64,000 bases of DNA from a virus (IMGVR_UViG_3300046535_001869:1-64000), one strand, 5' to 3'. Positions 1,446-59,464 are shown, numbered from the stretch's first letter. Translations and numbers: made by a program. Notes: a model not told the origin generated them from the sequence alone.

Positions 1446-1450
1446 GGACG

Positions 1451-3597: not shown

Positions 3598-3607
3598 GAG
3601 ACGTGCT

Positions 3608-4237: not shown

Positions 4238-4238
4238 G

Positions 4239-5323: not shown

Positions 5324-5327
5324 GATC

Positions 5328-43270: not shown

Positions 43271-43632
43271 AGCATCGGCTCCTCTCCATCATCGGTGAAG
43301 TCGTCGTTCGAGTGGGTAATCCAGCGGTTCGCCTTGTACGTCGTTCCCCAACGACCGACGTGGGCGCGCAGCGGCGTTGTGGTGTATCCGCTCGGCCCGG
43401 CAAGGAGGACGAAGGTCCCGTCGCGCGGCGCGGTCTCGATTGAGAGCCAGTTTGCGCGGTTCAGCGCATCGATGATCATCTGCGGCGAGTCGGGATCGCC
43501 GCGCGTCGTCCAGGCGATGATGGCCGGATCGGTCCCGGACATCGGATCTTCGTGGTCCTCGATAGCCCTGGCGTCGCGCCATGGCTCGATCCTTGGGTTT
43601 CGGTCTCCCAGGCGATATCTCAGGTTAGACAT
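43252..43632 (-). CDS. DUF551-like protein
   Basis: WLSIETAPRDGTFVLL..WMPLP. Confidence 0.6.
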   Translation of the reverse strand: MSNLRYRLGDRNPRIEPWRDARAIEDHEDPMSGTDPAIIAWTTRGDPDSPQMIIDALNRANWLSIETAPRDGTFVLLAGPSGYTTTPLRAHVGRWGTTYKANRWITHSNDDFTDDGEEPMLWMPLP

Positions 43633-44551
43633 TAACGAACCTCCTCGCGTTGAGCATCCGGTAGCCACGGACCAGCTCCTCGATCCCGCGGTCGAGGTCC
43701 TCAATAAGAGCAAATCCAGCTTGGTATAGTCGTTCTCCAGAGACCGCATAGTCGCGCTTGTCCGGGTCCTGGCGCAGCTCAGCCTCGTGATAGATGAAAC
43801 CTGGAACGTGGGTCGCAATGATCTCAACGAGCTGTCGCTTCGTAACGTTACCACCAACGACGTTGAACGCCCGACTGCCCATCGCTCCATAATTCTCCGC
43901 TGCATGGATAAACGCCCGCGCCACGTCACGCACATGAACCACCGACCGCCGGTGGTGGGCCTCGAATAGCGTCACCGAACCGTCGGTCACGGCACGGTGG
44001 ACGAAGTCGTTTACGAGCAGATCAATTCTCATCTTTGGCGACATCCCGAAGACGGTCGCGAGCCGCAGTGATACGCCACCGAGCTCGAGAACCCGCTCCT
44101 CGGCCTCGCACTTCGTCGTGCCATAGAGCGAGACCGGCCGTAGCGGGGTATCCTCGTCGCACGGCTTGTTGGACCCGGACGCGCCATACCCAGAGTTTGT
44201 GTTCGGATATATGATACGCTGGTCCTTCGACAGGATCTTGGTAAGCCCGAGGATCGCGCCCAGGTTGACGTCGCGCGCGGCCCATGGGTCGGCAGCGCAC
44301 GCCGACGCACCGACGATAGCTGCCAGAGGCACGACTACGTCGACCTTGGCAACTAGCTCCGCGACCAGACGCAGATCACGCACGTCGCCGCGGACCGGGG
44401 TGAAGATCGGGTACTGGCAGCAAGCGGCCAGGGACGGGCTGGCGGCGCTGAACCTGTCCAGGACGGTGACCGCGTGCCCCGCGCGGAGGAGCTCCGGGAC
44501 GAGGATGGAGCCGATGTAGCCAGCGCCTCCGGTGATCAGATAGCGGGTCAT
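43625..44551 (-). CDS. NAD-dependent epimerase/dehydratase (extended SDR)
   Basis: LITGGAGYIGS; YGTTK (YxxxK); RLATVFG. Confidence 0.9.
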   Translation of the reverse strand: MTRYLITGGAGYIGSILVPELLRAGHAVTVLDRFSAASPSLAACCQYPIFTPVRGDVRDLRLVAELVAKVDVVVPLAAIVGASACAADPWAARDVNLGAILGLTKILSKDQRIIYPNTNSGYGASGSNKPCDEDTPLRPVSLYGTTKCEAEERVLELGGVSLRLATVFGMSPKMRIDLLVNDFVHRAVTDGSVTLFEAHHRRSVVHVRDVARAFIHAAENYGAMGSRAFNVVGGNVTKRQLVEIIATHVPGFIYHEAELRQDPDKRDYAVSGERLYQAGFALIEDLDRGIEELVRGYRMLNARRFVNV

Positions 44552-44688
44552 TTAACAATCCTCCTTAGGGCAACGCCTATCGAAATAGCTAATGATATCA
44601 TAGCTAGTGGACAGAAATACAAAAAGCCATCACACCACCAAGGAAAATCCGGAAGACAACCATTCCATATCCAAATAATCCAATTCAT
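44548..44688 (-). CDS. AT-rich 46-aa membrane peptide
   Basis: MNWIIWIWNGCLPDFPWWCDGFLYFCPLAMISLAISIGVALRRIVK; ATGA overlaps. Confidence 0.4.
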   Translation of the reverse strand: MNWIIWIWNGCLPDFPWWCDGFLYFCPLAMISLAISIGVALRRIVK

Positions 44689-44990
44689 TTTACCATCTGC
44701 CTTAACCTCCGCGCGGCCTCTCGCGCCTGGCTCGGCGGGCCGTACTGCGACCCGCGCGACGACTGGTTCGGGACCGGCTCGCGCGGCTGGGCTAGCCTGG
44801 CGCTGCGCGCTCGGCGGAACGACGCGCGGTGCTCGTTGCCGGGTCGGGGTTCTTGGGTTTGGGTCATCTATACTCCCTCAGTATGGCCAAGTTTTCGTAC
44901 GATATATACTGCGCGCAATGAAAAATCCGAGCGCGTAACCGAGCGTCATGCCACAGAATATCCCAATCAACAGCGCTTCCTCAGGTCCGA

Positions 44991-45611
44991 TCATAATCTA
45001 AGCTCCCGCCGCGCCCGCTCCAGCTCGGCTGGCGTGCCGATGTCGACGAAGTAGCCATCGAGCCGCACGTCGGCGAACCCGGACGGGTGGCCTGTGATGA
45101 ACTCCTCCAGCGAGAGGGTCTCTGCATCGACGTCGTCGATCACCGAGCGGCGCAGCACGTAGAGGCCGGCGGGGGTACCGTCCCGAAGGCGTGCCACGAG
45201 ACCGGCGACTGGTCCCTTCGGACAACTAAGCCACCCGTTCTTTACCATGTTGAAAAGCGGGCGCGGATCCACGTCGAAGAACGTGTCCCCATTGGCTAGG
45301 ATGAACGTCTCATCGAGGCGATGGCGGGCGTACCATAGCGCGCCGCCGGTCCCGGCGTCCGGGACCGGCTCGATAGCGACGTAGATCGGGACGCCGAGGC
45401 GTCGGTCCGCCTCGCGAGCGTACTCCACTACCTTCATCGCCTCGAAGCCGGCGAGCAGGAGGAAGCGGTCGCACCCGTGGTCGCGCAGGTGGGCGATGAC
45501 GTGGTCGAGGAACGGTACCCCGCCGACCTCGAGCAGAGGCTTCGGGGTGGAGGCGGTCAGCGCACCGAGGCGGGTGCCCCGGCCACCGACGAGGATCGCG
45601 GCCTGGGTCAT
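44991..45611 (-). CDS. Sugar-phosphate nucleotidyltransferase (HddC-like)
   Basis: LVGGRGTRL..PKPL..GTGGAL..NGDTF..FVDIGTP. Confidence 0.85.
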   Translation of the reverse strand: MTQAAILVGGRGTRLGALTASTPKPLLEVGGVPFLDHVIAHLRDHGCDRFLLLAGFEAMKVVEYAREADRRLGVPIYVAIEPVPDAGTGGALWYARHRLDETFILANGDTFFDVDPRPLFNMVKNGWLSCPKGPVAGLVARLRDGTPAGLYVLRRSVIDDVDAETLSLEEFITGHPSGFADVRLDGYFVDIGTPAELERARRELRL

Positions 45612-45982
45612 CTCCCATACTCCCCGAACGGCCCGCGCGGCTCCTCGGGGTCTGGGTGCATGGTCAACTCGGCGAACACGTCGCGGTAGTCGACGTCGTC
45701 GAACTCCGCGGCGCGCGGGTCGTACTCGACGATGTTCGGGATGACGTTCCCGAACGGGAAGGGGTGGGTCTTAGTCCGGCGCATCATGGCTTCACCTGCG
45801 CCGCACGGATCTCATCCTTCAACTTACGCCAGCGTTTCGCCGCGCGCATATATCGCATCATCAGGTCATCTGGGACCTCTGCGTGATCGAACCCGCCGTA
45901 GCCGTCGTCGCTCTTGGACGCGACCGGCTCCATCTCGCCGTCTAGGTAGTCCCACTGTATCTTCATGAGGTTTCTCCTCGGG

Positions 45983-46327
45983 TTAATTCAGCTCTTGCGC
46001 TGATCCCAGAAATTCCGCCACCGTACGGCAACGGGACATGGAGGTAAAGTAATCTAGATGGCGTTCCATGCCATCTGGACCTGATCGGCTGACTCTAGCC
46101 ATTTCAATCTCGCCGTTGTCAGTGCGCGAGACCTCGGTACCGACGTATACTCCCAACCTTCTGTAGAAGTATTCTGCCTCGAGCGGAGTGCGCATACCTG
46201 CGGGAGCTGTTATAGTAAATTCGCAGGTTCGATTACCGTAACTTAACAGCACCCAGCTGCGGGCCTGGACGGTCGCGGTGGTTAAGACAAGAGCGGTCGC
46301 TGTAGCCGCAATGAGCTTGGTAAACAC
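45983..46327 (-). CDS. Secreted hypothetical protein
   Basis: MFTKLIAATATALVLTTATVQA; behind the repeated SD leader. Confidence 0.6.
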   Translation of the reverse strand: MFTKLIAATATALVLTTATVQARSWVLLSYGNRTCEFTITAPAGMRTPLEAEYFYRRLGVYVGTEVSRTDNGEIEMARVSRSGPDGMERHLDYFTSMSRCRTVAEFLGSAQELN

Positions 46328-46372
46328 TGAGGTCTCTCCTCGGGTTTGGGGTTCAGCTATCTCCTCTGGGGA

Positions 46373-46732
46373 TTAAGTTAAACGTTCTTTGGCTGCCGGA
46401 TCATCCGGCTCGTTGCTGTCGTCGTAGTTGTACGGGGACGGCTCGGCGTCGTGGTACCTGGCGAACACCACCCGGTCGATCGCCGGGGCGATCTCGCGCG
46501 CGGCGCGCTGGTCCCAGACGTAATGAGTAACGTCGGGCTCGCCGAAGACGCGGACCGCGTTCTCCCACTGCTGGGGATCGCGAAATCCGACGAAGTGCGT
46601 CGCGGGGCGGACGCCGTCCATCAGCAGATCGAGCAGCGTGGCGCCGGTAGACTTGCAGCAGCGCCGGGCGCAGGCGCCGGCCGTCGCGCAATCGCTGGCG
46701 TCTATGGGGCAGATCGGGCTAGGTTTAGTCAT
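46373..46732 (-). CDS. Hypothetical protein
   Basis: HFVGFR..AVRVFGEPD..H..WD.RA. Confidence 0.55.
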   Translation of the reverse strand: MTKPSPICPIDASDCATAGACARRCCKSTGATLLDLLMDGVRPATHFVGFRDPQQWENAVRVFGEPDVTHYVWDQRAAREIAPAIDRVVFARYHDAEPSPYNYDDSNEPDDPAAKERLT

Positions 46733-46956
46733 CCCTCGTACTTCCTAGCTATGTCCATCATCGCGCCGTGCGACAGGTGCGTCGGTGGATTCGTCCTCAC
46801 TAGCTCCTGGAGCCTGAAGAACTCCTGGCTGAGCGCGGCGGACCGGATCGTGGTCAGGACGACCGCGATCCGGGTCTCGTTCATGCCCTCCTCGCGCATC
46901 ATCTCGATCGCGGTCCGGCAGCGGGAGACGAAGATGGCGTCATCGGCGGTGATCAT
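46729..46956 (-). CDS. Hypothetical protein (paralog of 42528-42791)
   Basis: CRTAI.MMR..GMNETRI..V...RSAALSQEF. Confidence 0.55.
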   Translation of the reverse strand: MITADDAIFVSRCRTAIEMMREEGMNETRIAVVLTTIRSAALSQEFFRLQELVRTNPPTHLSHGAMMDIARKYEG

Positions 46957-46961
46957 AACGA

Positions 46962-47357
46962 CTACCCACGATCCTCGAGATAGCCGATCAGGTCCGCGCA
47001 GAGGCGGTTCCAGCCGCGCTCGGCGTCCTCGGCGGGGATGGTGATGTCGGCCCTCGGGTCGATCGCGAGGACCGCCTGGGCGACGCGCTTCAGCGACAGG
47101 CGTAGGATGGCGAGCTCGTGGGCCGAGGTGCGGCCTATCAACTCGGCCGTCTTACGGTCTTTCCCGGCCGCCCACGCGGCGTGGGCCAGCGGGGCGCGGT
47201 TATACGGGGTCGCGCGACCACCGTGGTGATAGCCGCGCCGGTAGGCCGAGGTCAGCCCGGTACCCGCGGGGTTATCCAGCTCGGGGATCTCGGTCTTCGC
47301 GATATAGACCGCGTAGACCTTCTCCTGGCCGGGATAGGCGAAGGTTCGATTATTCAT
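46962..47357 (-). CDS. Hypothetical protein
   Basis: ATG behind the GAGGAGAGACCTC leader. Confidence 0.55.
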   Translation of the reverse strand: MNNRTFAYPGQEKVYAVYIAKTEIPELDNPAGTGLTSAYRRGYHHGGRATPYNRAPLAHAAWAAGKDRKTAELIGRTSAHELAILRLSLKRVAQAVLAIDPRADITIPAEDAERGWNRLCADLIGYLEDRG

Positions 47358-47789
47358 GAGGTCTCTCCTCGTATGCGCTCCCAGAGCCGGCGCAGCGCGC
47401 GGATCCACCGCGGATAGCGCAGCTCGCTCAGATCGTGGCAGTATTGGCGCAGGTGCGCTTCCTTGACGCCCGCGACGTTGCGCTGGTGGGCCGCATCGAC
47501 CGCGCGCCACTCGGCCGGGGTCCTCGGGTAGGAGCCGCCGTTGAGCTTCGCGTAGTATTCGGCGCTCACGACCCGCGCTCCAGCTCGGCGAGCATCTCGA
47601 CGACGCGGTCGAGGACCACGTGGTACGGCGCGTCGATCACGACGCGATGGACCTGGGTCCCGGCGACGAAGCGCCGGCCCTCGTAGTGGGCCGCGGTGCG
47701 AACCGCGACGGCGATCCCGATCGGGGTGTCGCTCACGGTCGCGCGGTAGGCGGCGCTCGGGGAGAGGACGGTGGTCATCGCCTGATCCC

Positions 47790-48008
47790 CTAATAGAAAC
47801 TATTGTAGATCGTCTTACAGCCGCCGCGTGGGCCGACAAAGACGCACTCATGATATTCGACCTTGAAGCCGGGTTGGCTGTAGGTACGGGTCACACTCAG
47901 CGTATCTGTACCGCCAACCCGGTCCACCTCGTAACTGCGAAGCTCGTAGTTACCACCGTACGGTACGAGCCTGAGGTTATGTACGATTTCGATTTGACGG
48001 TCGGTCAT
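47790..48008 (-). CDS. Hypothetical protein
   Basis: ATG at the end of the repeated cassette; FVGPRGG. Confidence 0.55.
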   Translation of the reverse strand: MTDRQIEIVHNLRLVPYGGNYELRSYEVDRVGGTDTLSVTRTYSQPGFKVEYHECVFVGPRGGCKTIYNSFY

Positions 48009-48077
48009 GAGGTATCTCCTCGGTTGGTAGGGGTAGTATCGCGCCATTGCAGCGAAAAGTAAACCCCTATTTTGCCC
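48006..48077 (-). promoter_or_regulatory. Repeated promoter-SD cassette, copy 2
   Basis: -35 at 48058-48063, -10 at 48035-48040; near-identical to 34965-35036. Confidence 0.8.
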
Positions 48078-48083
48078 GAATTT

Positions 48084-48395
48084 TCAGTCGACCCGGGAGA
48101 CCTCAAACGAACCATCGGGCTGGACGACCGCGAGCCAAGAGCAGTCGTAGAACCGGATCACCTCGTCGCGCAGGCGCGTCTCGGCCAGGACCGCGAGCGG
48201 GTCATCGCCTGGGTACGACAGGCGACCGTCCGCGAGCATCTTGAACTTCGGTATCGGCCGCCATCCGCCGCCGTGGCGGTAGTTCTCGTCGATCTGTTCG
48301 CGCGCCGGGCGCGAGTCGCGTTCGTCGAGGAACGCGGGGACCAGACCGAGGAGGTCCATCGACGCGCTCGGGTGCCTCATGATCCATTTCATCAT
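48084..48395 (-). CDS. Conserved hypothetical protein
   Basis: D.RPAREQ...Y.HGGGW..L.YPGD..QPDGSFEVSR.D. Confidence 0.6.
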   Translation of the reverse strand: MMKWIMRHPSASMDLLGLVPAFLDERDSRPAREQIDENYRHGGGWRPIPKFKMLADGRLSYPGDDPLAVLAETRLRDEVIRFYDCSWLAVVQPDGSFEVSRVD

Positions 48396-48450
48396 GGTTT
48401 TCCTTTTATTTGAGGTTCAAACCAAGGTTGGCCAGACCAGTTGTTGATTC

Positions 48451-48789
48451 TTAACGTTTTATGGGTGGCCGATCCTGCGCCCGGAACATGGCCGTCCAGA
48501 CGTCCGAGTAGGCGTCGTGGCGCCGGTGGTCGCGTGGCGCGACCGTATTCTTAAAGTTCGGATAGTCGATCTCGTTGATCCGATCGGCCATCTCGGCCCA
48601 GACCTCGTAACGCGGGACCAGCGCCCGGTAGCGATAGTCCTTCTGCGGGGTCGTCGAGACCCTCGCAGAGGGGAACACACGCCGGATGTCGCCCTTGAAG
48701 CGGGCGCGGACTAGGAGCTGGTCTCCGGTCAGGTCGTCGTCGGGCGCGACAATCGAGAACATCGCGTCGGAGAGGAAGATCCACATCAC
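48451..48789 (-). CDS. Conserved phage hypothetical protein
   Basis: MWIF..FSIV..LLVRAR..DYRYRA..IDYPNFK. Confidence 0.6.
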   Translation of the reverse strand: MMWIFLSDAMFSIVAPDDDLTGDQLLVRARFKGDIRRVFPSARVSTTPQKDYRYRALVPRYEVWAEMADRINEIDYPNFKNTVAPRDHRRHDAYSDVWTAMFRAQDRPPIKR

Positions 48790-49106
48790 GGCACCCGCGC
48801 CGCGCGCAGCGCCGCCTCGTAGGCGTCGATCCCGCCCGCGTGCGCCTCGTCGAGGAGGCGCGCGACGGTGCGCTCCGTGAAGGGAATCGAGTCGCCAGCG
48901 CGGCCCATCGACGAGAAGCGCAGCGCGCCGTTCTTGCCGACGTAGACGCGATGGCGCAGCAGGTCCTCCTGCGGCTTGAGGAGGCTCCGCGTCTCGGCGG
49001 TCGGCCTGAAGACGACCTTCTTCGTCACGTGGGTCGCGGTGTCGACGACGTAGCCGCGCGCGAGGAGCGCGGTGGTCAGGAGCTGCTGGCGGGTGGGCTT
49101 GGGCAT
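48786..49106 (-). CDS. Hypothetical protein
   Basis: ATG behind the repeated SD leader; YVGKNGALR. Confidence 0.55.
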   Translation of the reverse strand: MPKPTRQQLLTTALLARGYVVDTATHVTKKVVFRPTAETRSLLKPQEDLLRHRVYVGKNGALRFSSMGRAGDSIPFTERTVARLLDEAHAGGIDAYEAALRAARVP

Positions 49107-49123
49107 GAGGTCTCTCCTCGGTT

Positions 49124-49300
49124 TCAAAGTCCAGCTTCGATGGCGCTGAGGATCTCGCGAGCCCAGCGCTTGACCTTCGGCTCGTACTCGCCGGTGATGA
49201 AGTGCTCGGTCAGATCGCGCGCGTGGCGCAGGGCCTCCTCCTGGCGGATCAACTTCTGACCGACGAGCTCGTCCTGGAGGTCGTGACGGGTGGTCTTCAT
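49124..49300 (-). CDS. Hypothetical protein
   Basis: ATG at the end of cassette copy 3. Confidence 0.55.
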   Translation of the reverse strand: MKTTRHDLQDELVGQKLIRQEEALRHARDLTEHFITGEYEPKVKRWAREILSAIEAGL

Positions 49301-49366
49301 GAGGTATCTCCTCGGATTGGTAGGGGTAGTATCGCGCCGTTGCGGCGAAAAGTAAACCCCTAATTT
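49298..49366 (-). promoter_or_regulatory. Repeated promoter-SD cassette, copy 3
   Basis: -35 at 49351-49356, -10 at 49328-49333. Confidence 0.8.
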
Positions 49367-49505
49367 CGCGATCTTGGAAGATTTCTGCGGAGCCCGAGCT
49401 CGAACCGCACAAGCGGCGCGTGCCACCACGGCAGCGGGCCAAACGTGCGCTGCCACGCGGCGCGGGTCTCGGCCTGCCGCCAGATCCGGCGCCAGTCGAG
49501 CCGGC

Positions 49506-50495
49506 TCACGTCGCCCACCCGTTTACGACGACCGTCGAGCCGGAGCGGGCGATACCCACCGGCACGAACACCGCGCTCGGGAGCGCGGCGCGGACCCGCG
49601 TGTGGTCCTCCGGGCACGCGAATAGCAAACAAAATCCCCCTCCGCCTGCTCCCAGCAGCTTCCCGCCGATCGCACCGGCCGCGCGGGCTCGCTCGTACAG
49701 CTCGCCGACTGTCGGGGTGGCTACCAGGGGTGAGAGGGCTTGCTTTAATCGCCAGGCCTCGTCCAGCAGCTCGCCTAGCGCCTCTATCGGCGTTGTCGAG
49801 GACAGCAGGATCGTCTCGGCCTCGTCGACCTGCTCGCGCATGCGGGCTAGGTACGGGGAGATCGGGGAGAGGTCGAGCGAGGCGGCGATCTGCGGCGCAT
49901 CTCTGACTTCTCCCGTAAACGCGAGTAGCAGATGATCGAGTAGCTCGCGCTGGCGGGCCTGGGGGACCATCGGGCGCCGGACTTCCCATCCGGACGGCCC
50001 GAAATCGACCCGGAGCAGATCGCCGTAGGCGGCGAAGATCTGGTCCTGTTCGCCGCCCAATTCCGCCATCACCGTGCGCTCCAGGTGGATCGCGCGGCGG
50101 GCGAGGAGGCCCGGGTGGTCGTGGCGGCCCGAGAGGGCATCGATCGCGGTGATCAGGCCACAGATGAAGGCTGACGATGATCCGAGGCCCGCGCGGGAGG
50201 GCAGGTCCGCCGAGTATGTGCACTCGATGTTAGTAGGGCGTCCCAGCTGGGTCAGGACGGCGCGGGCGGCCGGGTGGATCAGATCGTCGGCGTGCTCGGT
50301 CAGCTCGATCCTGGAATATACGAGCCTGACGTTGTGCTCGTGAAATGCGGGGAGCTCCCTCACAGTCAAGTAGACGTAGTGGTCGATGGCGAACCCGAGG
50401 ACCGCACCGCCGCGCGGGGACTCGTTGTAATAGGCCGGCGTGTCTGTGCCGCCGCCGAAGAGGCTCACCCTTAGTGGCGTTCGCGTGATGATCAC
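49506..50495 (-). CDS. GHMP sugar kinase (HddA-like heptose-7-phosphate kinase)
   Basis: TPLRVSLFGGGTD..DLPSRAGLGSSS..QDQ..GGKLLGAGGGGF. Confidence 0.88.
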   Translation of the reverse strand: MIITRTPLRVSLFGGGTDTPAYYNESPRGGAVLGFAIDHYVYLTVRELPAFHEHNVRLVYSRIELTEHADDLIHPAARAVLTQLGRPTNIECTYSADLPSRAGLGSSSAFICGLITAIDALSGRHDHPGLLARRAIHLERTVMAELGGEQDQIFAAYGDLLRVDFGPSGWEVRRPMVPQARQRELLDHLLLAFTGEVRDAPQIAASLDLSPISPYLARMREQVDEAETILLSSTTPIEALGELLDEAWRLKQALSPLVATPTVGELYERARAAGAIGGKLLGAGGGGFCLLFACPEDHTRVRAALPSAVFVPVGIARSGSTVVVNGWAT

Positions 50496-50878
50496 GGATC
50501 AATCCTCTCCACAACGAGCTCGTACCCGCTCGGACGCTCCTCGACGCGGACGATCGCGTTGCCGCTGCTCGTGTGCTGGTCTGGCGCGACCCAGACCGCG
50601 GTATCGGTCCGAGCGACGTAGCCGCCGCCCTTGTAGCCCACGAACACGCGCCCGATGGCGTCCGAAAGCAGGCCCGCCAGCGCGCCCGCGGTCTGGGGAC
50701 GGTCGCCGCGCTGGACGAACACCAGCGCCAGGTCCTCGTAGTAGCCGCGGTAGCTGACCAAGTGGTCCCAGCGGTAGCGGCCCGAGCCGACCCAGACCTT
50801 GGCCGAGCGTGGCAGGCGGGTGAGCGTGGCGAGGAGCGTCCCGACCGTCATCGCGCCGAGCGCGGCGCCGGGGCTCAC
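50492..50878 (-). CDS. Conserved phage hypothetical protein
   Basis: SYRGYYEDLAL..GRVFVGYKGG..T.VWVA. Confidence 0.6.
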   Translation of the reverse strand: MSPGAALGAMTVGTLLATLTRLPRSAKVWVGSGRYRWDHLVSYRGYYEDLALVFVQRGDRPQTAGALAGLLSDAIGRVFVGYKGGGYVARTDTAVWVAPDQHTSSGNAIVRVEERPSGYELVVERIDP

Positions 50879-51108
50879 TGCTTCTCCCCATAGATCAGGC
50901 GCGTGACCCGCTCGCGCAGGCCCTCGCAGAACGCCTCGACGAGCTCGTCGGGCTGCTTGTTGTAGCGCACCGCGTTGAACGCGATCAAACCGGCGACCAT
51001 GCCCTCAACCGCGACCATCTCGGTCTCGAACTGACCGATCGCAGCCATCTTGGCGCCGAACTCCCGGATCAGGGAGGCGGTCAGGTCATTGATCTCATCC
51101 GTGGTCAC
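50875..51108 (-). CDS. Hypothetical protein
   Basis: Coupled ORF. Confidence 0.5.
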   Translation of the reverse strand: MTTDEINDLTASLIREFGAKMAAIGQFETEMVAVEGMVAGLIAFNAVRYNKQPDELVEAFCEGLRERVTRLIYGEKQ

Positions 51109-51437
51109 TCGACCAACCCGCGGATCGTCGCGTCGTACAGGTCGAGGACGTCCTCTACGGTCCGCTCGGGCGCGTCGTTCCAGTCAGCGACGGGACAGGA
51201 GATGCCCCGGCCCACGAGTGTCTTCCTTAGTGCGTCGAAGGCGACCTGGCGGCGGACGGTATCCTCGTAGGTGCACATCCGGCCGCCGACCACCGCAAAG
51301 ATGCCCCCTACTGCGCAGGCTCGTCCGTTATCAATGGAGACATTCTGGCACCAGCCGTGGGTTACGATGTACTCGCGAGCGGCGCGGAGGTCCTCGACGA
51401 GGGTACTCGGGGCGAAGGTAGTGCTGTCTAGGGGCAT
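51105..51437 (-). CDS. DUF6197-like protein
   Basis: GWCQ..CAVGGI..WNDAPERTVEDV. Confidence 0.55.
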   Translation of the reverse strand: MPLDSTTFAPSTLVEDLRAAREYIVTHGWCQNVSIDNGRACAVGGIFAVVGGRMCTYEDTVRRQVAFDALRKTLVGRGISCPVADWNDAPERTVEDVLDLYDATIRGLVE

Positions 51438-51446
51438 ATCGGACTC

Positions 51447-51746
51447 CTATGATTTAACCAGCTTGACGACCTTCTCGGCGGGTGGCTCGTCGACCCAGTC
51501 CAGGAAGGTGCGGACCGCGGCGAAGTCGGGGAAGATCTTGGCGCGGGCGTAGTCCTCGCCCGGCTGAAGCATCAGCAGGTGGAGGTCGACGAGGTACGAG
51601 CCGATCTTATTGGGCTCGCCGGTCTGTGGATTAAGGCACTCGACGAGATACATCGTCTTCGTGACCCGCTCGCGGAACCGAACCAGAGTCCAGTGCCCCT
51701 CGTCCGGGTCGTCGATCATGGCGAGGAGGTTGATCATGGCCACCAT
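51447..51746 (-). CDS. Hypothetical protein
   Basis: ORF with phage-like codon usage. Confidence 0.5.
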   Translation of the reverse strand: MVAMINLLAMIDDPDEGHWTLVRFRERVTKTMYLVECLNPQTGEPNKIGSYLVDLHLLMLQPGEDYARAKIFPDFAAVRTFLDWVDEPPAEKVVKLVKS

Positions 51747-52057
51747 CCGTTATTGGTATGAACCTTTGTTGCCAGATAGCCTAGAATCGTGAGACGAGTA
51801 TCGATCCAGGGCGCGCCGCACGAGGAGCAGACGCAGACGTCGAACCTACTTGCTTCCTCTGGTATAGTCTGACCCATGGCGTAGTTATGGAACATTTTTG
51901 TAACGATCACGTCCCCCTCGGGTCCTGGGTCTTGGCCGGCCGGGACCCCAACGGGGGCCGGTCGTATGACTACCTTCGTCTCGCAGATCCGGTGTCCATT
52001 CTCGCAGGTTATCTCGGTCCCAGCCGGTAACGGCCCGGAGTAACCGTCGTAAGTCAC
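51734..52057 (-). CDS. Hypothetical Zn-binding protein
   Basis: CENGH.IC..CSSCGAPW. Confidence 0.5.
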   Translation of the reverse strand: MTYDGYSGPLPAGTEITCENGHRICETKVVIRPAPVGVPAGQDPGPEGDVIVTKMFHNYAMGQTIPEEASRFDVCVCSSCGAPWIDTRLTILGYLATKVHTNNGWWP

Positions 52058-53568
52058 TTCGCCTCCTCCAACAGATCCCGTTTCAGCGTATACGACGTCA
52101 TCCTACGGATCTCCTCGACCGCCGCTTGGCCGAACTTGTCGCGGATCATCGCGAGGTAGCCCGGGTCGGTGAAGTAGCACGTGAAGGCGGTGTCGCGGAA
52201 GCGGAGGACCTCAGCGGCGGGGACGGTCTCGGTGTCTAGTGGACGAGATACGGAATTGTGCTGAGAATATCCGGCCCAGGACGATGGAGGCGTCCATCCC
52301 TCGGCGAGGGCCTGGTCGTATAGAGGCGAGCCGGGATAGGCCATCGCGCAGTAGAAATTGGCAAACTCGGTTCGGAGGGAGCGCGCGAGATCGAGGGTCT
52401 CTCCCATCGTCTCCATCGTATCGCCGCGCAGGCCAAAGATATAGTTCCCAATCACGTTGATCCCCGCGGCCTGGATCATCGCAACAACCCGGCGGATCTC
52501 GGCGTTATCGTCCTGGCCGGCGCGCAGGCGCTTGTTCGCCCCGGCGCGGACGTGGGCCGAGCCGGCCTCTATGCCGAGGGCTAACCATTTGATCCCAGCC
52601 TTGCGTAGAAGTGGTAAGTCGTCGTCGTGGACCGTGTCGGTACGAGAGTAGGCCCATATGTTCAGGTCGTCGGCGATCCCGGAGGCGATCAGCCGATGGC
52701 AGATCTCGCGAAAATGCCCGCGGTTCAAAACAAAGAGCTCGTCAGTTATCTTGAACGTTCGGATACCGTACTCGCGATAGAGCATCACGATCTCGTCGAC
52801 GACCTTGCGCGGATCGCGGCGCCGGTAAACGTTCGAGTGCTGGAATACGTTAATCATGCAGAAGTGGCACTTGAAGCTACACCCCAGGCTCGTGTGGATC
52901 GACGCGTAAGGCTGACGCCGCGTCGGGTCCTCCAGGCACTGCCAGTTGTGCGCCCGGTAGAGGTGCATCGGCAGCAGGTGCCACGCCGACGAGCCGTGGA
53001 GATCGCAGTCGAGGTCGAGGAGCGGTGCGCGGGGATTGGCGACCGCTCGCTCGTCCCCGCCGCAGGTCGGGTGGGACCACACCAGGCCTGGGATCTCCTG
53101 CGGGTACCAGACGCCACCGTGCTTGTGGATTTGCTCTAGGAGTCCCTCGATCGTCAGTGGTCCCTCGCCGTCGCAGACGAAGTCAACCGGCTCCTCGCGC
53201 AGCGTCCTTTCTGGTAGCGCCGAAGGGTGGTTACCGAGCATGAGGATCGGAGGGGGGAAGAGCAGGACGCGGATGGCCTGAGCTACGGCCCGCGCTCCCG
53301 TCATTTGCTGTGTACTCGCCGATGGTTGATGACCGTGGACGCATATCGCAACTAGACGCGGTCGATAGAAGGTAACCTTGATAGCAACCTGCTCCGGTGA
53401 AAGGTGTTCGGCCTCCTGGTCGATGATCGCGACGGTCTTCCCACGATCTAGAAAGTAGGAAGCGATAATTCGACACCACAGAGCCTGTTCGATAGCCGTG
53501 AGGGTGCCACCAAGCTCGCCGTAGATGCCGTGCACCGCGCCGGGATGGATCAGGACCAGGTCGATCAT
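52054..53568 (-). CDS. Cobalamin-binding radical SAM enzyme
   Basis: N-terminal B12-binding region (GHQPSASTQ..GNHPSALP..GEG); CSFKCHFC (CxxxCxxC); DELF; LGIEAG; YPGS. Confidence 0.9.
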   Translation of the reverse strand: MIDLVLIHPGAVHGIYGELGGTLTAIEQALWCRIIASYFLDRGKTVAIIDQEAEHLSPEQVAIKVTFYRPRLVAICVHGHQPSASTQQMTGARAVAQAIRVLLFPPPILMLGNHPSALPERTLREEPVDFVCDGEGPLTIEGLLEQIHKHGGVWYPQEIPGLVWSHPTCGGDERAVANPRAPLLDLDCDLHGSSAWHLLPMHLYRAHNWQCLEDPTRRQPYASIHTSLGCSFKCHFCMINVFQHSNVYRRRDPRKVVDEIVMLYREYGIRTFKITDELFVLNRGHFREICHRLIASGIADDLNIWAYSRTDTVHDDDLPLLRKAGIKWLALGIEAGSAHVRAGANKRLRAGQDDNAEIRRVVAMIQAAGINVIGNYIFGLRGDTMETMGETLDLARSLRTEFANFYCAMAYPGSPLYDQALAEGWTPPSSWAGYSQHNSVSRPLDTETVPAAEVLRFRDTAFTCYFTDPGYLAMIRDKFGQAAVEEIRRMTSYTLKRDLLEEAK

Positions 53569-53777
53569 CAGAACTCCTTCATCAACGTGACGATGATCCG
53601 GCCGCGGCCGAACGCGTCGCGCTCAAACTTAAAACCAGACTGGAACGAGAGCCTGGACGCCTCCTCCCAGAGCTCCAGGACCGGCGCGAGCGCCTCCTCG
53701 ATCCGACGCTTCAGGTCGACGGCGACCTCGGCGTCGCTCCGGGTCGTCAGCAGGCGAACCGGCGGGTCGTCGTTCAC
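53568..53777 (-). CDS. Hypothetical protein
   Basis: Coupled ORF. Confidence 0.5.
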   Translation of the reverse strand: MNDDPPVRLLTTRSDAEVAVDLKRRIEEALAPVLELWEEASRLSFQSGFKFERDAFGRGRIIVTLMKEF

Positions 53778-54022
53778 TTCACCCTCGTCAGCTTGAGCAC
53801 GTTCGGAACCCGCCCGATGCCCCTGGTCTCGGCCAGCACCGCGTCCAGCTGTCGGTTCAGCGCGTCACAGCGCGTGTAGAGAGTCGTCTTGGACACGCCG
53901 CCGTAGTCGCGCCAGATCCCTGCGACAACGTTCTTGGACACGCCGAAGCGTTCCGCGACCACGGACTGGATCTCGCCGTCGCCGAGGAGGTCGAGGATCG
54001 CGGTGCGGCGCTCTGGGGTCAT
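53774..54022 (-). CDS. GcrA-like N-terminal HTH protein
   Basis: TPER...LDLL..G.....VAERFGVSKNVVAGIWR resembles the GcrA sigma-binding HTH. Confidence 0.5.
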   Translation of the reverse strand: MTPERRTAILDLLGDGEIQSVVAERFGVSKNVVAGIWRDYGGVSKTTLYTRCDALNRQLDAVLAETRGIGRVPNVLKLTRVK

Positions 54023-54453
54023 CCGGCAAACTTCTCGCGAGCCCTCATACTGAACCAGTGGTGGACGTTCAGGATAGCGGCTTGCGCGATCTCATCGATT
54101 TGCTTTGATGAACCATCGCTACCCTCGGTATCAGCGACGAGCTCCCCATTAAGATCGCCATCATTAAACGAGAATACGAGCTTCACACTGCCACGGTCCG
54201 CGAGAGCGGTTCGTATAGCCTCTAGGGCTGGTTCCTTGAAGCCGGAGACAGCAAGCTCAGTCGCGGCGCGAAATCGCATCCCCCGCTCGGCAGCAACGAT
54301 CGTTACTAGTTGATCTGCGGTTGCGTCCGGCAGCTTTCCGCGAACGTACTCGGTGGGATCAAGGTCCTCGTCCGTGAGATATGCCGTAACGCTCCGTTCG
54401 CTGAAGATCTCTCCTTCAGCTCCGACTCTAAACGTCAATTTTGCTAGATGCAT
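54019..54453 (-). CDS. Hypothetical protein (lower GC)
   Basis: AAGGA SD, ATG 54453. Confidence 0.5.
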   Translation of the reverse strand: MHLAKLTFRVGAEGEIFSERSVTAYLTDEDLDPTEYVRGKLPDATADQLVTIVAAERGMRFRAATELAVSGFKEPALEAIRTALADRGSVKLVFSFNDGDLNGELVADTEGSDGSSKQIDEIAQAAILNVHHWFSMRAREKFAG

Positions 54454-54639
54454 GATGTCTTCCTTACGAAATAAGCCGCCCGCGCCGCGCGATACTCCTC
54501 GCGCGTCGGCCGCGGGGTCGGCGATGCGGGCCGGACGCGGATGAACTCTCGCATATCGGCCTCGTTGACGCAGCGTTAGGCGAGCCACTCGCGGCCGGCG
54601 TGGAGGAAGGTGTGGGTCATGATTCTTTATCATAGTCGT

Positions 54640-55812
54640 TCATAGTGTGTTCTTTAAAATTTTTACAGCTTTTTCAATAAGATCTGGGATTGGCCACGGC
54701 GCGCAGCCCAGGAACAGGCCAGTATCGTGGATCCGATCGGCGTTCGGCGTCGGGTTCGCCTCGCGCCAGGGCGCGCCGTAGGGATGACGGGTAAAGGACC
54801 CGCCGGTAGGTAAGCGTGCGTCGATCGAGGCTTCGCGCAGGGCCGCGACCAGGGCACGGCGGCGCTCGCGCGACTCGACCGTAAACGGCAGCCCGAACGG
54901 ACTGGGAGTCCCCTCGATCCTCGGGTGGACGATCGGTAGATCAGTCGTGAGGCTACGAAATAGGTCGGCGTTGGTGCGACGCGCGGCGATCATCTCGGGG
55001 AGCTTCCGTAGCTGCTCGCGGGCGACCGCGGCGTGGATCTCGACTGGCCGCAAATTGTACCCGAAAATGGTGAAATTGTAGTGCTCCTCAACCTCGGCGC
55101 TGCCCCACCCGGCGTTCCCGTGGTCGCGCAGGAGGCGCATCGTCCGGGCTAGGTCGTCGTCGTCGGTCAGCGCGGCGCCGCCTTCCCAAGCGCTAATCTG
55201 GTGGGAGTAGAAGAAACTAACGGTGGCGATGGCGCCGAACTCGATGGCGTCTACCCCAGGAGGCTTGCCCGCAAAGGCGCCGATCGACTCGCAGGCATCT
55301 ACTAGGAGCGGGATGTTGAGACGAGTAGCCAAGATCTGCCAGTCGACAAGATATGCCGGGTTGCCGAGGACCGGAACGGTGACGAGGAGCGACAACTTGT
55401 CCCACTCCATTTCGACGAGGTTTCCGGCGGGCGCATTCCACGTGTCGTCTACGTCGACAACTAGCGGCGCGAGGCCGTGCTGGATCGGGGGAGCATAGGT
55501 CGTGGCCCAGGCGATGGCCGGCGCGGCGAATCGGGAGATCTCCAGGGGAGGATCTCCCATCCACTGCTCGCCGTTCCGGATCCACCCATCCCCAGCGCGA
55601 TGCGCCAGCGCCACCACCGCGATGAGGTTAGCCGACGACCCGGAGTTGACCATCACCGCGTGGCGGCGGCCGTGGAATGCCGCGAGCTCGGCCTCCAGCG
55701 CCTCGGTCTCCGGCCCCATCGTCAGGCGGTCGGAGGCCAGCACGCGGGCGACGGCGGCGGCCTCTTCCGCTCCGTGCGCGCTGAAGGCTGTCGGAAAGTC
55801 CCACGTCGTCAT
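54640..55812 (-). CDS. DegT-fold PLP enzyme, ColD-like NDP-4-keto-6-deoxysugar 3-dehydratase
   Basis: TMGP..MVNSGSSANL..DACES..SFFYSHQISAWEGG (His at the Schiff-base Lys position)..GYNLRP. Confidence 0.8.
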   Translation of the reverse strand: MTTWDFPTAFSAHGAEEAAAVARVLASDRLTMGPETEALEAELAAFHGRRHAVMVNSGSSANLIAVVALAHRAGDGWIRNGEQWMGDPPLEISRFAAPAIAWATTYAPPIQHGLAPLVVDVDDTWNAPAGNLVEMEWDKLSLLVTVPVLGNPAYLVDWQILATRLNIPLLVDACESIGAFAGKPPGVDAIEFGAIATVSFFYSHQISAWEGGAALTDDDDLARTMRLLRDHGNAGWGSAEVEEHYNFTIFGYNLRPVEIHAAVAREQLRKLPEMIAARRTNADLFRSLTTDLPIVHPRIEGTPSPFGLPFTVESRERRRALVAALREASIDARLPTGGSFTRHPYGAPWREANPTPNADRIHDTGLFLGCAPWPIPDLIEKAVKILKNTL

Positions 55813-56082
55813 TAGTATACTCCCAGACCGTGCGCTACGTCGTTCGCGAACAGTAGGACGACCATGAGCAGGACGACCGCACCGATCGCGTATGCTAGTG
55901 CTTCCATTACACCCTCACGTTCCAGATCCGGAGGCCTAGTCGACAGAGCTCGGTGAAGGCCAAACGACGCTTAATGTGAAACTCGTCTCCGGGGTTAATA
56001 GGGTAAGCTGGATTCTCAATGGCATCGCGGGTCCGCTGGTCGACATTCCGCATTAGGTCCTCGTAGCGGCGCTCCAGGTCGG

Positions 56083-56667
56083 TCATCCCTGGTCCTCCGT
56101 CTCGTATAGCTCCGCCCTCTCGACGAGGATCGTCGACGTCGGACGACGAAGGGCATCCATATAATAGGGGACGATCATGTACGGCTCGAATAGTTCTATC
56201 ACGTGGATAGTCCGCAGCATCGCGCGGAGCGCAGCGACGTAACCGGTGGGAACAAGGTCGACCTCGTCCGAGAGATAGTTGCCGCCCTCAGGGTCGACGT
56301 GCTGCGGACCTGGGTCGAGCGGGATCGGGGAGGCGATCGACGTACGGATGATGACCTTCGGGCGATAGTCGGAGTAGAGCGGGATCGCGTCGAGGTGGAG
56401 GACGAGCTGATTCATCGCCAGCAGAAGGAAGTTGATTCGCGGGTAGACCGCTACCGGGATCGCGCCGGTCAACGACAGCCCCGTGGCGATTCCCATCTGA
56501 GTATCTTCAAAGACAGGCGTCTCGATCATCCTCTCGCGCGGAACGTCGCGGAACGTCGCGGTCATCGCGGTGCCGCCGGCTACGATGGACTGGCCAAGAA
56601 ACATGACGCGAGGGTCCTCGGCGAGGAGGGTCATCGCCTCGGTCAGGCGATCACGATAGGTGGTCAA
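56083..56667 (-). CDS. ThDP-dependent enzyme beta subunit (pyrimidine-binding domain only)
   Basis: FLGQ..ETPVFEDTQMGIATGL..YPRINFLLLAMNQLV..PGPQH. Confidence 0.8.
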   Translation of the reverse strand: MTTYRDRLTEAMTLLAEDPRVMFLGQSIVAGGTAMTATFRDVPRERMIETPVFEDTQMGIATGLSLTGAIPVAVYPRINFLLLAMNQLVLHLDAIPLYSDYRPKVIIRTSIASPIPLDPGPQHVDPEGGNYLSDEVDLVPTGYVAALRAMLRTIHVIELFEPYMIVPYYMDALRRPTSTILVERAELYETEDQG

Positions 56668-56685
56668 AACTCTTTCCTCGTGACG

Positions 56686-57387
56686 TTAGTCATCATCATG
56701 TAGTCGTAATTTCCCTGGAGCACCAAGGGCATGAATGCCCAACCGCGTAACCCAGTCTAGTATGTGGCACCATCGCCGATCGTCTTTCTCGAATCGGGGA
56801 ACCTTACCATCAGCGACATCAAGGCACACACAGGCGACGCAATTCAATTGCGCATCAGCCATTCCAATCTGCTCCATCAGTTCGATGTAGCGAAGATCAT
56901 CGGCGGTCGGTTCAATTGGCACCATGCCATGCGGGTCAGGCAGAGGTACAGGTTCGCCCAACTTAACGTAGGAGTTTGTAGTTTCCCAATGCCGTATCGT
57001 TTGCAAGCATCGCTCGTACCAACGCACCCATTTTTCTGGTTCCCACACGATGTTCGCATTCATCGAGCGTCCGAATCGCTTGTACCAGCGTATCTCGACG
57101 CCCTCGAACGAGAAATTCGGAGCGTCGGCTAGTTGCTGATCCCAGTCGGCATCTTCGGGCGAACCACCCCAATTATAATAGTGATTCCAAACAATCCCCT
57201 GCGGCAGTGGCGTTAGCCCCCCTTCGTCTGACCACATATCAAAATCGCGACCCGCTTCCCATTGTTTCTGCTGGGTATTCCAATATGCTCGATTCAGGTG
57301 CGCGCGTAACCCCTCTATCAGTGCATCAACGTAATCTGGCAGCGGTGCGCCGACAGGGTTGTTGTGAATTATTTGTCCTAATTCCAT
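56686..57387 (-). CDS. Hypothetical protein (lower GC) between the ThDP subunits
   Basis: MELGQ..PNF..IRWYK..GR. Confidence 0.6.
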   Translation of the reverse strand: MELGQIIHNNPVGAPLPDYVDALIEGLRAHLNRAYWNTQQKQWEAGRDFDMWSDEGGLTPLPQGIVWNHYYNWGGSPEDADWDQQLADAPNFSFEGVEIRWYKRFGRSMNANIVWEPEKWVRWYERCLQTIRHWETTNSYVKLGEPVPLPDPHGMVPIEPTADDLRYIELMEQIGMADAQLNCVACVCLDVADGKVPRFEKDDRRWCHILDWVTRLGIHALGAPGKLRLHDDD

Positions 57388-57441
57388 TTGTAAAACCAGC
57401 GTCCTTTAAGCGCGGTCACAGTCCGGCACGAAGGATTTTCG

Positions 57442-58032
57442 TCAGAAATCGACGCGGACACCCGCACCAGCGTGCGGGAACTTATTCTTATAGAAGTATC
57501 GATGCTCCTCTGCCGCCCCCGGGTGTGCGCCCCAAGCCTCCTGCGTATCGGTCATGACGGAGAGGCCGTTATCTTCGACGACGAACGAGATCGGCAGCGC
57601 CTGGCGCCGCGCGTAGGTCGTCGCCTCGTGATATGCTCCAGTCACTGCTGTCATGTCGCCACAAAATACATGAACCTTGGCGTCAGACCCCTGGCGTCTT
57701 AACCCCACCGCGATCCCCACGGCGATCGGCAGGATTCCGCCGACGATCGCCGACGAGACGACCCGGTGCTCGAGGAAGCACAACGTGATCGAGCGGCCGG
57801 CGAGGATCGCGGCGCGGACCTCGTCCGAGGGGACTTCGGCCAGGAGGCAGTGGTAGTGCATTCGCCATGACCCACAGACCCAGTCGCCGCGGGCCGCGTC
57901 GTGGTGCGCGGCGAAGTAGTCGATCAGCTGCTGCTCGTTGCCGCCCGAGAGGTGTACCGGGTGTGGGATCTCGGCGCGGTTGAACCGCTCGGCGATGTCC
58001 GCCTCGAAGGCTATCAGGTCGGCGGGGGTCAT
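57442..58032 (-). CDS. ThDP-dependent enzyme alpha subunit (short E1-alpha-like)
   Basis: PVHLSGGNE..WR.HYH..SAIVGG..GDM..VEDN; ATG 58032 after AAGGAGG. Confidence 0.82.
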   Translation of the reverse strand: MTPADLIAFEADIAERFNRAEIPHPVHLSGGNEQQLIDYFAAHHDAARGDWVCGSWRMHYHCLLAEVPSDEVRAAILAGRSITLCFLEHRVVSSAIVGGILPIAVGIAVGLRRQGSDAKVHVFCGDMTAVTGAYHEATTYARRQALPISFVVEDNGLSVMTDTQEAWGAHPGAAEEHRYFYKNKFPHAGAGVRVDF

Positions 58033-58061: not shown

Positions 58062-58090
58062 ACCATAGCGCACTAACAACGAAAAGTAAA
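58062..58090 (-). promoter_or_regulatory. Promoter copy (TTTACT-N17-TATGGT) upstream of the ThDP alpha gene
   Basis: cgaaaagtaaac motif with 17-nt spacer. Confidence 0.7.
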
Positions 58091-58510
58091 CTAAGGAAAT
58101 CGGAATCCACGCTCCTCCCAGAACGCGACGACGCGCGGGTCGGCCTCGCGCTCCAGGCGGAGGTACCACGGCCGACTGACGCCGAGGCTTTCGTACACGT
58201 CGACGAGGAGCTCGCCGGACCGGCGGCGCGCGGCGGCGCACAGCTCGGCCTGGGTGGGTACCAGACCCTCGATCGGTTCGGCAGCGGCGGCGACCTCCGC
58301 GGCTAAGACGCGAGCACCAAGGCCAGCCTCGATCGCACGATAGGAACTGTAGCTAACGCCGATCGTCGCGGCTGCCTCGGTCTGAGTCATCGCCGGCCCG
58401 GCCCGGCCGAAGGTCCTCCCGTTTCGGCTGAGCTGCCGACGGCGCCAGATCCACAGCCGCTCGGCGTCGGTCAGGTAGCCGAGGTCGTAGCGCGTCGATA
58501 CATCGTTCAT
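58091..58510 (-). CDS. Tandem XRE-HTH protein
   Basis: MTQTEAAATIGVSYSSYRAIEAG and LGVSRPWYLRLE. Confidence 0.6.
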   Translation of the reverse strand: MNDVSTRYDLGYLTDAERLWIWRRRQLSRNGRTFGRAGPAMTQTEAAATIGVSYSSYRAIEAGLGARVLAAEVAAAAEPIEGLVPTQAELCAAARRRSGELLVDVYESLGVSRPWYLRLEREADPRVVAFWEERGFRFP

Positions 58511-59090: not shown

Positions 59091-59464
59091 CTCACCCTCC
59101 CTCCCGGGTGCCTCTCCGCCGCGCGGTCCGCGGCGTCCACCACGACGGCCCGCTGTCTCGGGCTGACGAACCCGCGAGCGTAGTACTGCTCGCGGATCGA
59201 GTTGAGGACCCCGCGGAATTCACCGCTGGCGTTTCGCATAGCCAGGTCGAACGCGGCCTCGAGGTCGTCGTCCCCAGCCGGGGCAGACTCGACTTCTGCC
59301 ACGACCGAGATCACCCTCGACAGTGCCATCTCCCACGTGTAGCCGTTGCGCGCCAGGAGCGACGTCGCCTGACGTAGGCACGCCAGCGCCTCGTGATCGT
59401 TGTCCGACGTCGAGAGGGTCATCAGCTTCTTTAACTGACCGAAGTCCTTGAGGTTCATCCACAT
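59087..59464 (-). CDS. Hypothetical protein
   Basis: KKLM.L.TSDNDHEAL; SPRQ. Confidence 0.55.
   Translation of the reverse strand: MWMNLKDFGQLKKLMTLSTSDNDHEALACLRQATSLLARNGYTWEMALSRVISVVAEVESAPAGDDDLEAAFDLAMRNASGEFRGVLNSIREQYYARGFVSPRQRAVVVDAADRAAERHPGGRVR

Follow-up and report, generated by a model that had tools for sequence, protein, structure and literature searches.

A conserved nucleotide-sugar cassette, spread out in a soil phage genome, proposed to make a branched 3-deoxy higher sugar

An uncultured soil phage carries a spread-out copy of one conserved nucleotide-sugar cassette, whose seven genes belong to one pathway. The cassette lies in IMGVR_UViG_3300046535_001869:1-64000, which is the opening 64 kb of a virus record of 109,299 bp, complete and bounded by direct terminal repeats. 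This stretch is called the window below; its G+C content is ~63%. We favor, with somewhat better than even confidence, an explanation in which the seven enzymes turn guanosine diphosphate (GDP)-heptose into a 3-deoxy C-branched sugar for the decoration of phage proteins. The genes, with the family matches that define them, are:

43625-44551, minus strand: short-chain dehydrogenase/reductase (SDR), Cj1427-like; Pfam Epimerase, 1.4e-32
44991-45611, minus strand: nucleotidyltransferase, HddC-like; NTP_transferase, 5.9e-13
49506-50495, minus strand: GHMP kinase, HddA-like; N domain 3.7e-11, C domain 2.1e-8
52054-53568, minus strand: class B radical S-adenosylmethionine (SAM) enzyme; Radical_SAM 8.2e-17 (62.3 bits), B12-binding 5.5e-11 (42.8 bits)
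54640-55812, minus strand: DegT family enzyme, ColD-like; Pfam, 3e-52
56083-56667, minus strand: thiamine diphosphate (ThDP) enzyme, beta subunit, 194 aa; Transket_pyr, 1.1e-6
57442-58032, minus strand: ThDP enzyme, alpha subunit, 196 aa; E1_dh, 5.6e-10

A first reading of the DNA, made from the sequence alone, had proposed seven sugar-chemistry genes at these positions, all on the minus strand and interleaved with small phage open reading frames (ORFs). Both points hold: each gene has a significant Pfam or NCBIfam family match, and about 22 small ORFs lie between the seven. The orphan ORFs that were searched belong to no known family; two of them, 56686-57387 and 54019-54633, drew a blank in Pfam, NCBIfam, PHROGs and the protein Atlas. 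The seven genes cover 14.4 kb, against a median of 6.8 kb for viral loci; since this is at the upper end of the viral range, we take the dispersed layout to be derived.

The cassette recurs as a unit in bacteria and in viruses. Searched with a profile of the alpha subunit, species-representative bacterial genomes yielded 342 stretches and viral contigs at least 587; neighboring genes were counted in the best 80 of each. ORF calling in these fetched loci was crude, taking the longest frames that do not overlap, and contig ends truncate some loci. Beside alpha, the counts were:

ThDP beta: bacterial 79/80, viral 79/80
DegT (ColD-like): bacterial 74/80, of the His type; viral 57/80
GHMP kinase: bacterial 68/80, viral 28/80
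B12-radical SAM: bacterial 59/80, viral 67/80
SDR: bacterial 57/80, viral 52/80
Nucleotidyltransferase: bacterial 48/80, viral 2/80

Where a bacterial locus had its full 10-kb flanks, the complete seven-gene set was present in 23 of 36 cases, as a compact cassette. Its neighbors often include a second GmhA, an L-2-hydroxyglutarate oxidase, glycosyltransferases and a Wzm/Wzt exporter. Carriers come from seven phyla at least, with examples in Verrucomicrobiota, Nitrospirota, Burkholderiales, Saccharibacteria, Acidobacteriota, Planctomycetota and Bacteroidota, and the distribution is uneven: of 401 Burkholderiales species sampled, just 4 have a cassette-type alpha. Cultured carriers include Piscinibacter defluvii SH-1, Piscinibacter sp. 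MQ-18 and Massilia sp. 2TAF26.

Related phages keep a tight core of the cassette. Searching with the radical SAM protein revealed six related viral contigs in which five genes (ThDP alpha, ThDP beta, ColD-like, SDR and B12-radical SAM) form an operon, 4.7 kb long in locus L001; another viral locus, L101, has the complete set of seven, and GmhA as well, within 7 kb. Co-occurrence across relatives, which the sequence-only reading had named as a check, is thus borne out both by the compact bacterial cassette and by the operon of related phages. Trees of the radical SAM enzyme, alpha and the DegT enzyme each place this phage in an all-viral clade of ~20 whose members are largely shared, from which we conclude that the module was inherited as a unit in this lineage. 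Pattern scans of viral contigs with the single kinase and nucleotidyltransferase sequences returned no useful relatives. Megablast of the region against cultured phages gave no match, and the radical SAM protein has only distant matches there. The cultured cyanophages S-SM2 and P-TIM68 carry a fused alpha-beta homolog within heptose gene clusters; the S-SM2 version (locus L168, 143601-159059 of the record) is a 402-aa ThDP protein annotated as transketolase-like, accompanied by sugar epimerases, a carbohydrate kinase, an RfaE-type adenylyltransferase and a phosphoheptose isomerase. Two further features of viral loci were noted. In 29 of them (for example L110:6275-6706) the module is preceded by a family of ~143 aa that matches nothing in Pfam and is absent from this genome, and in one related phage an IS605 OrfB/TnpB-type gene is inserted between ThDP beta and the ColD-like gene (L004:6806-7981).

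Three of the enzymes point to GDP-heptose as the stem of the pathway. The kinase has HddA as its best NCBIfam match (81.5 bits, 7.4e-23; cut-off 600) and the heptose kinases 3K85, 4USK and 4N3O as its best PDB matches (1e-22 to 3e-19). The nucleotidyltransferase retains an intact GGRGTRL motif, scores 72 bits against HddC in NCBIfam (cut-off 300), and finds 6JQ8 (HddC, full length) and 5XHW ('6-deoxy-D-mannoheptose pathway protein') as its best PDB matches, at 5.9e-19. The earlier proposal that an HddA-like and an HddC-like enzyme activate heptose therefore gains support, in that the nearest solved or curated relatives of both predicted proteins are GDP-heptose enzymes. The SDR is the sole PF01370 match and the only extended SDR in the 109-kb genome. 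It keeps its GGAGYIG and YxxxK (YGTTK) motifs and aligns over its full length (residues 3-307, 3e-88, ~55% identity) with PDB entry 6VO6, which we take to be Cj1427, a GDP-heptose C4-dehydrogenase. This match makes the SDR a predicted Cj1427-type, NAD-dependent GDP-heptose C4-dehydrogenase that would create a 4-keto group, and not the YerF-type branch reductase that had been suggested for it. The kinase, nucleotidyltransferase and, on the presumed identity of 6VO6, the SDR are thus all nearest to GDP-heptose enzymes; unrelated nearest neighbors, which had been foreseen as grounds for abandoning the pathway, were not seen.

Genes that accompany the bacterial cassette fit this chemistry. Cj1427 restores its bound NAD at the expense of 2-oxoglutarate, which it reduces to L-2-hydroxyglutarate (PMC10680097), and an L-2-hydroxyglutarate oxidase (NF008726, 536 bits, cut-off 299) occurs in 19 of the 80 bacterial loci (for example L016:5382-6590) and in 6 viral loci. 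Because its substrate is what Cj1427 makes from 2-oxoglutarate, the oxidase probably recycles the co-substrate of the Cj1427-like dehydrogenase. Of the 80 bacterial cassettes, 13 contain a GmhA-like gene, a divergent second copy; a dedicated gmhA is also present in 4 of 80 viral loci. Cassette carriers among the Burkholderiales have a housekeeping gmhA in addition to the cassette gmhA.

The DegT enzyme is predicted to be a 3-dehydratase of the ColD/E1 type, in agreement with the sequence-only reading. Its best PDB match is ColD itself (2GMS, 1.2e-45, full length), followed by the CDP-sugar 3-dehydrases 3BCX and 3BB8. At the position of the Schiff-base Lys of aminotransferases it has His (SHQ, aligned with SHH of ColD), and the H188N mutant entry 3B8X identifies which His is diagnostic. 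That residue is conserved throughout the phage copies and, among bacterial cassette copies, in 56 of 57. In Campylobacter, the C4-dehydrogenase Cj1427 together with a C3-dehydratase yields GDP-3-deoxy-4-keto-heptose, of m/z 616.08, in vitro (PMC10680097).

The ThDP enzyme is predicted to be a trimmed alpha/beta pair of the E1 type. The alpha gene most likely starts at the ATG at 58032, giving 196 aa, because the same gene call stands in the protein database and a strong ribosome site, GAAGGAGG, precedes it. A profile of 21 alpha homologs matched pyruvate dehydrogenase (PDH) E1-alpha best (3.7e-13), ahead of branched-chain ketoacid dehydrogenase (BCKDH, 1.7e-8), 1-deoxyxylulose 5-phosphate synthase (DXS, 5e-6) and transketolase (3e-5). 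The ThDP motif (GDM...EDN) is intact in alpha, as is the activating-Glu motif (ETPVFED) in beta. Neither subunit is a full-length E1 at 196 and 194 aa, and scores fall far under the NCBIfam cut-off: the alpha match to the NCBIfam E1 model spans only positions 16-180 of 315, and the beta match to PDH E1-beta (3.8e-6) covers only positions 5-95 of 327. Beta lacks the E1-beta C-terminal domain, and the parts by which E1 is tied to the dehydrogenase complex are missing. The first reading had invoked a YerE-like ThDP step. Its branching logic may hold; the family does not, for the phage enzyme has two chains (E1_dh plus Transket_pyr) in place of the single acetolactate-synthase-like chain of YerE. 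The G+C content of 56001-58000, which holds both ThDP genes, is 58.8% against ~63% for the window, a weak hint of separate origin.

The radical SAM enzyme belongs to class B. Its B12-binding and Radical_SAM Pfam domains both exceed their cut-offs, and a CX3CX2C motif occurs as CSFKCHFC at residue 230. NCBIfam scores reach no family cut-off (BchE 131 of 481 bits, HpnJ 113 of 578, PhpK 67 of 600), and the best PDB match is AprD4 (2e-15). Of the earlier suggestion that a B12-radical SAM enzyme methylates or rearranges a carbon, the enzyme class holds; methylation is not the sole reading, as BchE and HpnJ outscore the methylases. A phosphonate pathway, built from a split phosphonopyruvate decarboxylase, a Fom3/PhpK-like radical SAM enzyme and a cytidylyltransferase, was considered and rejected: the genome has no phosphoenolpyruvate (PEP) mutase, and the ThDP subunits match E1 and not the decarboxylases.

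Together, these assignments suggest a route from a host metabolite to a branched sugar. The host would supply D-glycero-D-manno-heptose 7-phosphate (through GmhA) and the 7-phosphatase (GmhB), and the phage kinase and nucleotidyltransferase, judged by their best matches, would convert the host heptose 7-phosphate into GDP-heptose. The SDR would then oxidize C4, its bound NAD being recycled by 2-oxoglutarate, as the 6VO6 identity, the presumed likeness to Cj1427 and the oxidase in bacterial cassettes suggest. Removal of the 3-hydroxyl by the ColD-like enzyme would give GDP-3-deoxy-4-keto-heptose, a step for which the diagnostic His and the Campylobacter reaction argue. The trimmed E1-type pair may next decarboxylate pyruvate and attach two of its carbons at the C4 ketone, on the model of YerE and of the role proposed for AviB1/AviB2. 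The B12-radical SAM enzyme would perform the last carbon-centered step; we lean toward ring closure from C7 to the branch carbonyl, with C-methylation about as likely. A glycosyltransferase of the GT-B fold encoded at 148-1071 would finally transfer the sugar to phage proteins, either components of the virion or the exported, Ser/Thr-rich proteins whose genes lie just downstream, and transcription would start from a phage promoter-like motif directly upstream of alpha. Activation, C4 oxidation and 3-deoxygenation are supported, as predictions, by homology and by the published enzymology of relatives; the ThDP branching step and the radical SAM step we infer.

Several observations weigh against this route. 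The literature we searched gave no confirmation that 6VO6 is Cj1427, an identity we assume from Huddleston et al. 2020. No enzyme of the seven passes the curated cut-off of any characterized NCBIfam equivalog, so substrate assignments rest on best matches. GmhA and GmhB, which the sequence-only reading had proposed to seek elsewhere in the genome, were both absent from the 109 kb of the phage. Among complete close relatives, the kinase is present in one of three and the nucleotidyltransferase in none of three. As relatives usually lack both genes, their five-gene core must be able to run on a nucleoside diphosphate (NDP)-sugar made by the host, which may not be a heptose. An Fcl-like second SDR in 29 of 80 bacterial cassettes has no place in the scheme, and some of the IMG/VR contigs counted as viral may be cellular DNA.

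Caryose offers one concrete candidate for the product. The biosynthesis of this carbocyclic nonose (4,8-cyclo-3,9-dideoxy-nonose) is stated to be unknown (PMC9092360), and we tentatively propose that the cassette makes a sugar of this type, a possible outcome that we would not call probable. The enzyme set would fit this skeleton atom for atom. C1-C7 would come from heptose, and C8-C9, with C9 as the methyl group, from pyruvate through ThDP attack on C4. The ColD-like enzyme would account for the 3-deoxy position, and the radical SAM enzyme would close the cyclopentane between C7 and the C8 carbonyl. The 6-hydroxyl would be kept because C4 is oxidized by a Cj1427-type enzyme and not by a 4,6-dehydratase. 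Such a route needs no ketoreductase, which agrees with the single SDR of the phage core, and the radical SAM enzyme scores nearest to the ring-forming BchE and HpnJ.

A promoter-like 12-mer, GTTTACTTTTCG, has 6 exact copies in the window, every one on the minus strand, where chance would give 0.06. Three of them lie beside or among the sugar genes:

58080-58091, minus strand: exact copy of GTTTACTTTTCG, 48 nt upstream of the alpha start codon
49346-49357, minus strand: exact copy of GTTTACTTTTCG, closing the alpha-to-kinase unit
48053-48064, minus strand: exact copy of GTTTACTTTTCG, preceding the nucleotidyltransferase and SDR unit

The first of these confirms the promoter copy that had been reported directly upstream of ThDP alpha; there, a TATGGT hexamer lies 17 nt downstream of TTTACT. 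Judging by the copies at 49346 and 48053, there are probably two transcription units, alpha through the kinase forming one and the nucleotidyltransferase and SDR belonging to the other. A generic scan of the region for sigma-70 promoters and terminators performed no better than on shuffled sequence. A 73-nt intergenic element occurs in three copies (34964-35036, 48005-48077 and 49298-49370) that are 70-100% identical and contain the promoter-like 12-mer together with a ribosome site and start codon; the element resembles an early-gene leader that has been reused. The ribosome-site-plus-ATG motif is conserved at seven gene starts between 34961 and 49318. It is found twice within the 218-aa ORF at 48786-49442, which is therefore probably a pair of small genes, 49124-49300 and 48786-49106. 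Just upstream of the module, 59455-62529 encodes the large subunit of a ribonucleotide reductase (1024 aa; PHROG 84, 9.5e-108).

A glycosyltransferase in the virion module is the probable user of the sugar:

148-1071, plus strand: GT-B glycosyltransferase of the virion module, assigned from an AlphaFold model and Foldseek

This protein has no Pfam, NCBIfam or PHROG match. Its AlphaFold model (pLDDT, the model's own confidence score, 80) matches many GT-B enzymes with a Foldseek probability of 1.00 and TM scores of 0.5-0.6, among them TarM, SenB, PimA, BshA, SdgB and GtfA (3e-7 to 2e-5). On this modeled structure it is assigned to the GT-B glycosyltransferases. The sequence-only reading had called for a search of the rest of the genome for more glycosyltransferases, and this predicted enzyme is the one that was found; no further sugar genes turned up with Pfam PF13524 and PF00535 or in tblastn with the glycosyltransferase, RmlC-like and PfkB families of related viral loci. 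The GT-B family is linked to the module in other viruses: it adjoins the module in 11 of 31 viral loci, once lying inside it, and shares a contig with it in 18 of 19 large contigs checked. In L001 the whole module stands between head genes and the tail sheath gene. The four ORFs that follow the GT-B gene (1430-8903) are 21-25% Ser+Thr, compared with 11-15% in typical virion genes. Their N-termini resemble signal peptides, one of the Tat type (RRTRRS), and the proteins are candidate sugar acceptors. The place of the GT-B gene in a virion operon, its linkage to the module, the arrangement in L001 and these Ser/Thr-rich exported neighbors make glycosylation of phage proteins the leading reading, with a putative acceptor.

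The same pathway and sugar might instead serve the host surface, with the sugar placed on lipopolysaccharide or capsule during infection, where it would mask receptors or exclude other phages. Bacterial cassettes lend this idea some weight, as they lie in O-antigen-type loci; in Nitrospira, GT2 enzymes and a Wzm/Wzt exporter border the cassette, from which we conclude that the bacterial cassette feeds a surface polysaccharide. The sugar genes of the phage also lie in an early/middle region behind early-type promoter copies. Against a surface role, the sole glycosyltransferase found is a soluble GT-B enzyme inside a late virion operon, the L001 module sits among structural genes, and a search limited to a few families found no Wzx/Wzy, exporter or lipid-carrier enzyme. 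On balance we consider decoration of the host surface unlikely.

The order of the steps could also differ, with the ThDP enzyme acting first. In a reaction like that of transketolase or DXS, it would build a higher ketose phosphate, which GmhA, the kinase and the nucleotidyltransferase would then activate. The lincosamide octose pathway follows a similar logic with a transaldolase. Both phage subunits belong to the transketolase-like ThDP superfamily, Pfam tags some homologs as DXP-synthase, and the fused S-SM2 protein is annotated as transketolase-like within a heptose cluster. The alpha profile speaks for E1 instead, scoring PDH E1-alpha far better than DXS or transketolase. Moreover, alpha and beta adjoin a 3-dehydratase, the kind of enzyme from which branching ThDP enzymes classically receive their acceptor (PMC9306805), and the five-gene viral core keeps alpha and beta, usually with no kinase or GmhA. 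We regard a ThDP-first pathway as quite unlikely, and retain the order in which branching follows 3-deoxygenation.

Two further explanations fare worse. The sugar might be put on phage DNA, for example on a modified base, as a layer against restriction, and T4 DNA glucosyltransferases are indeed GT-B enzymes. Here, however, the GT-B gene lies in a late virion operon, its structural neighbors glycosylate proteins and teichoic acids and are not DNA glucosyltransferases, and the bacterial cassette is a polysaccharide cassette; a DNA target is very unlikely. That the seven genes are unrelated metabolic pick-ups in one region, as the ~22 orphan ORFs and at least two promoter copies between them might suggest, is already contradicted by the same genes standing side by side in many bacterial phyla and viral contigs, and is almost certainly wrong.

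Known systems share parts of the cassette. Closest to its heptose stem is the capsular GDP-heptose pathway of C. jejuni (GmhA, HddA, GmhB, HddC, Cj1427 and the HS:5 C3-dehydratase; PMC10680097); the phage set resembles it in having an HddA-like kinase, an HddC-like nucleotidyltransferase, an SDR ~55% identical to 6VO6 and a His-type 3-dehydratase that uses pyridoxal or pyridoxamine phosphate (PLP/PMP). The Campylobacter pathway differs in having no ThDP or radical SAM enzyme and in ending with epimerases and C4-reductases, which the phage lacks. YerE, ErwE and MMAR_2332, which act with YerF-type reductases in the yersiniose, erwiniose and caryophyllose pathways (PMC9306805), follow the same acceptor logic, branching a 3-deoxy-4-keto NDP-sugar from a ColD/E1-type enzyme. 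They are single-chain, acetolactate-synthase-like enzymes that act on CDP-hexoses and need a ketoreductase, whereas the phage has a split, trimmed E1 pair, a predicted GDP-heptose and no second SDR. AviB1/AviB2 of avilamycin and Pau11/Pau12 of paulomycin offer a parallel of another kind: a two-subunit ThDP pair is proposed to form a C-4 acetyl branch from pyruvate (PMC4753412). These come from actinomycete antibiotic clusters and are likened to the phage pair by proposed function, not by sequence or size.

The radical SAM enzyme and the use of the sugar have precedents as well. The ring-forming BchE, HpnJ and calditol synthase (PMC9092360), along with the methylating or dehydrating PhpK, TsrM and AprD4, share the B12-binding domain and CX3CX2C motif with the phage enzyme, which differs from BchE and HpnJ in reaching no family cut-off and in a substrate that would be a nucleotide sugar. 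Virion glycosylation in phages is documented by Freeman et al. 2023, as cited in PMC12801897. Those phages, like the clusters of S-SM2 and P-TIM68, provide examples of phage-encoded glycosyltransferases and sugar genes; S-SM2 has its fused alpha-beta beside heptose genes, and the heptose clusters of both cyanophages are annotated only. A 2025 cyanophage paper lists a DegT-family and radical SAM pair among unexplained "antibiotic synthesis genes" (PMC12801897).

Each enzyme family, and phage glycosylation itself, was already known; what is apparently new is the combination, its spread and its presence in many phages, and we found no paper that describes any of the three for the seven-gene cassette. 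The cassette joins four chemistries: C4 oxidation of GDP-heptose, PMP-dependent 3-deoxygenation, a minimal E1-type ThDP carboligase and a B12-radical SAM step. We know of no system in which these four work together, and mycobacteriophages are not known to use such a pathway to produce their own rare sugar. The cassette would thereby offer a concrete route to branched or carbocyclic higher sugars such as caryose. The findings indicate that entire lineages of phages, in soil as well as among the marine T4-like ones, would make their own rare sugar, with a bearing on virion glycosylation, on how phages are recognized, and on viral-metagenome genes now labeled metabolic or "antibiotic". If the caryose reading is true, this would be a phage lineage decorating its proteins with a carbocyclic sugar.

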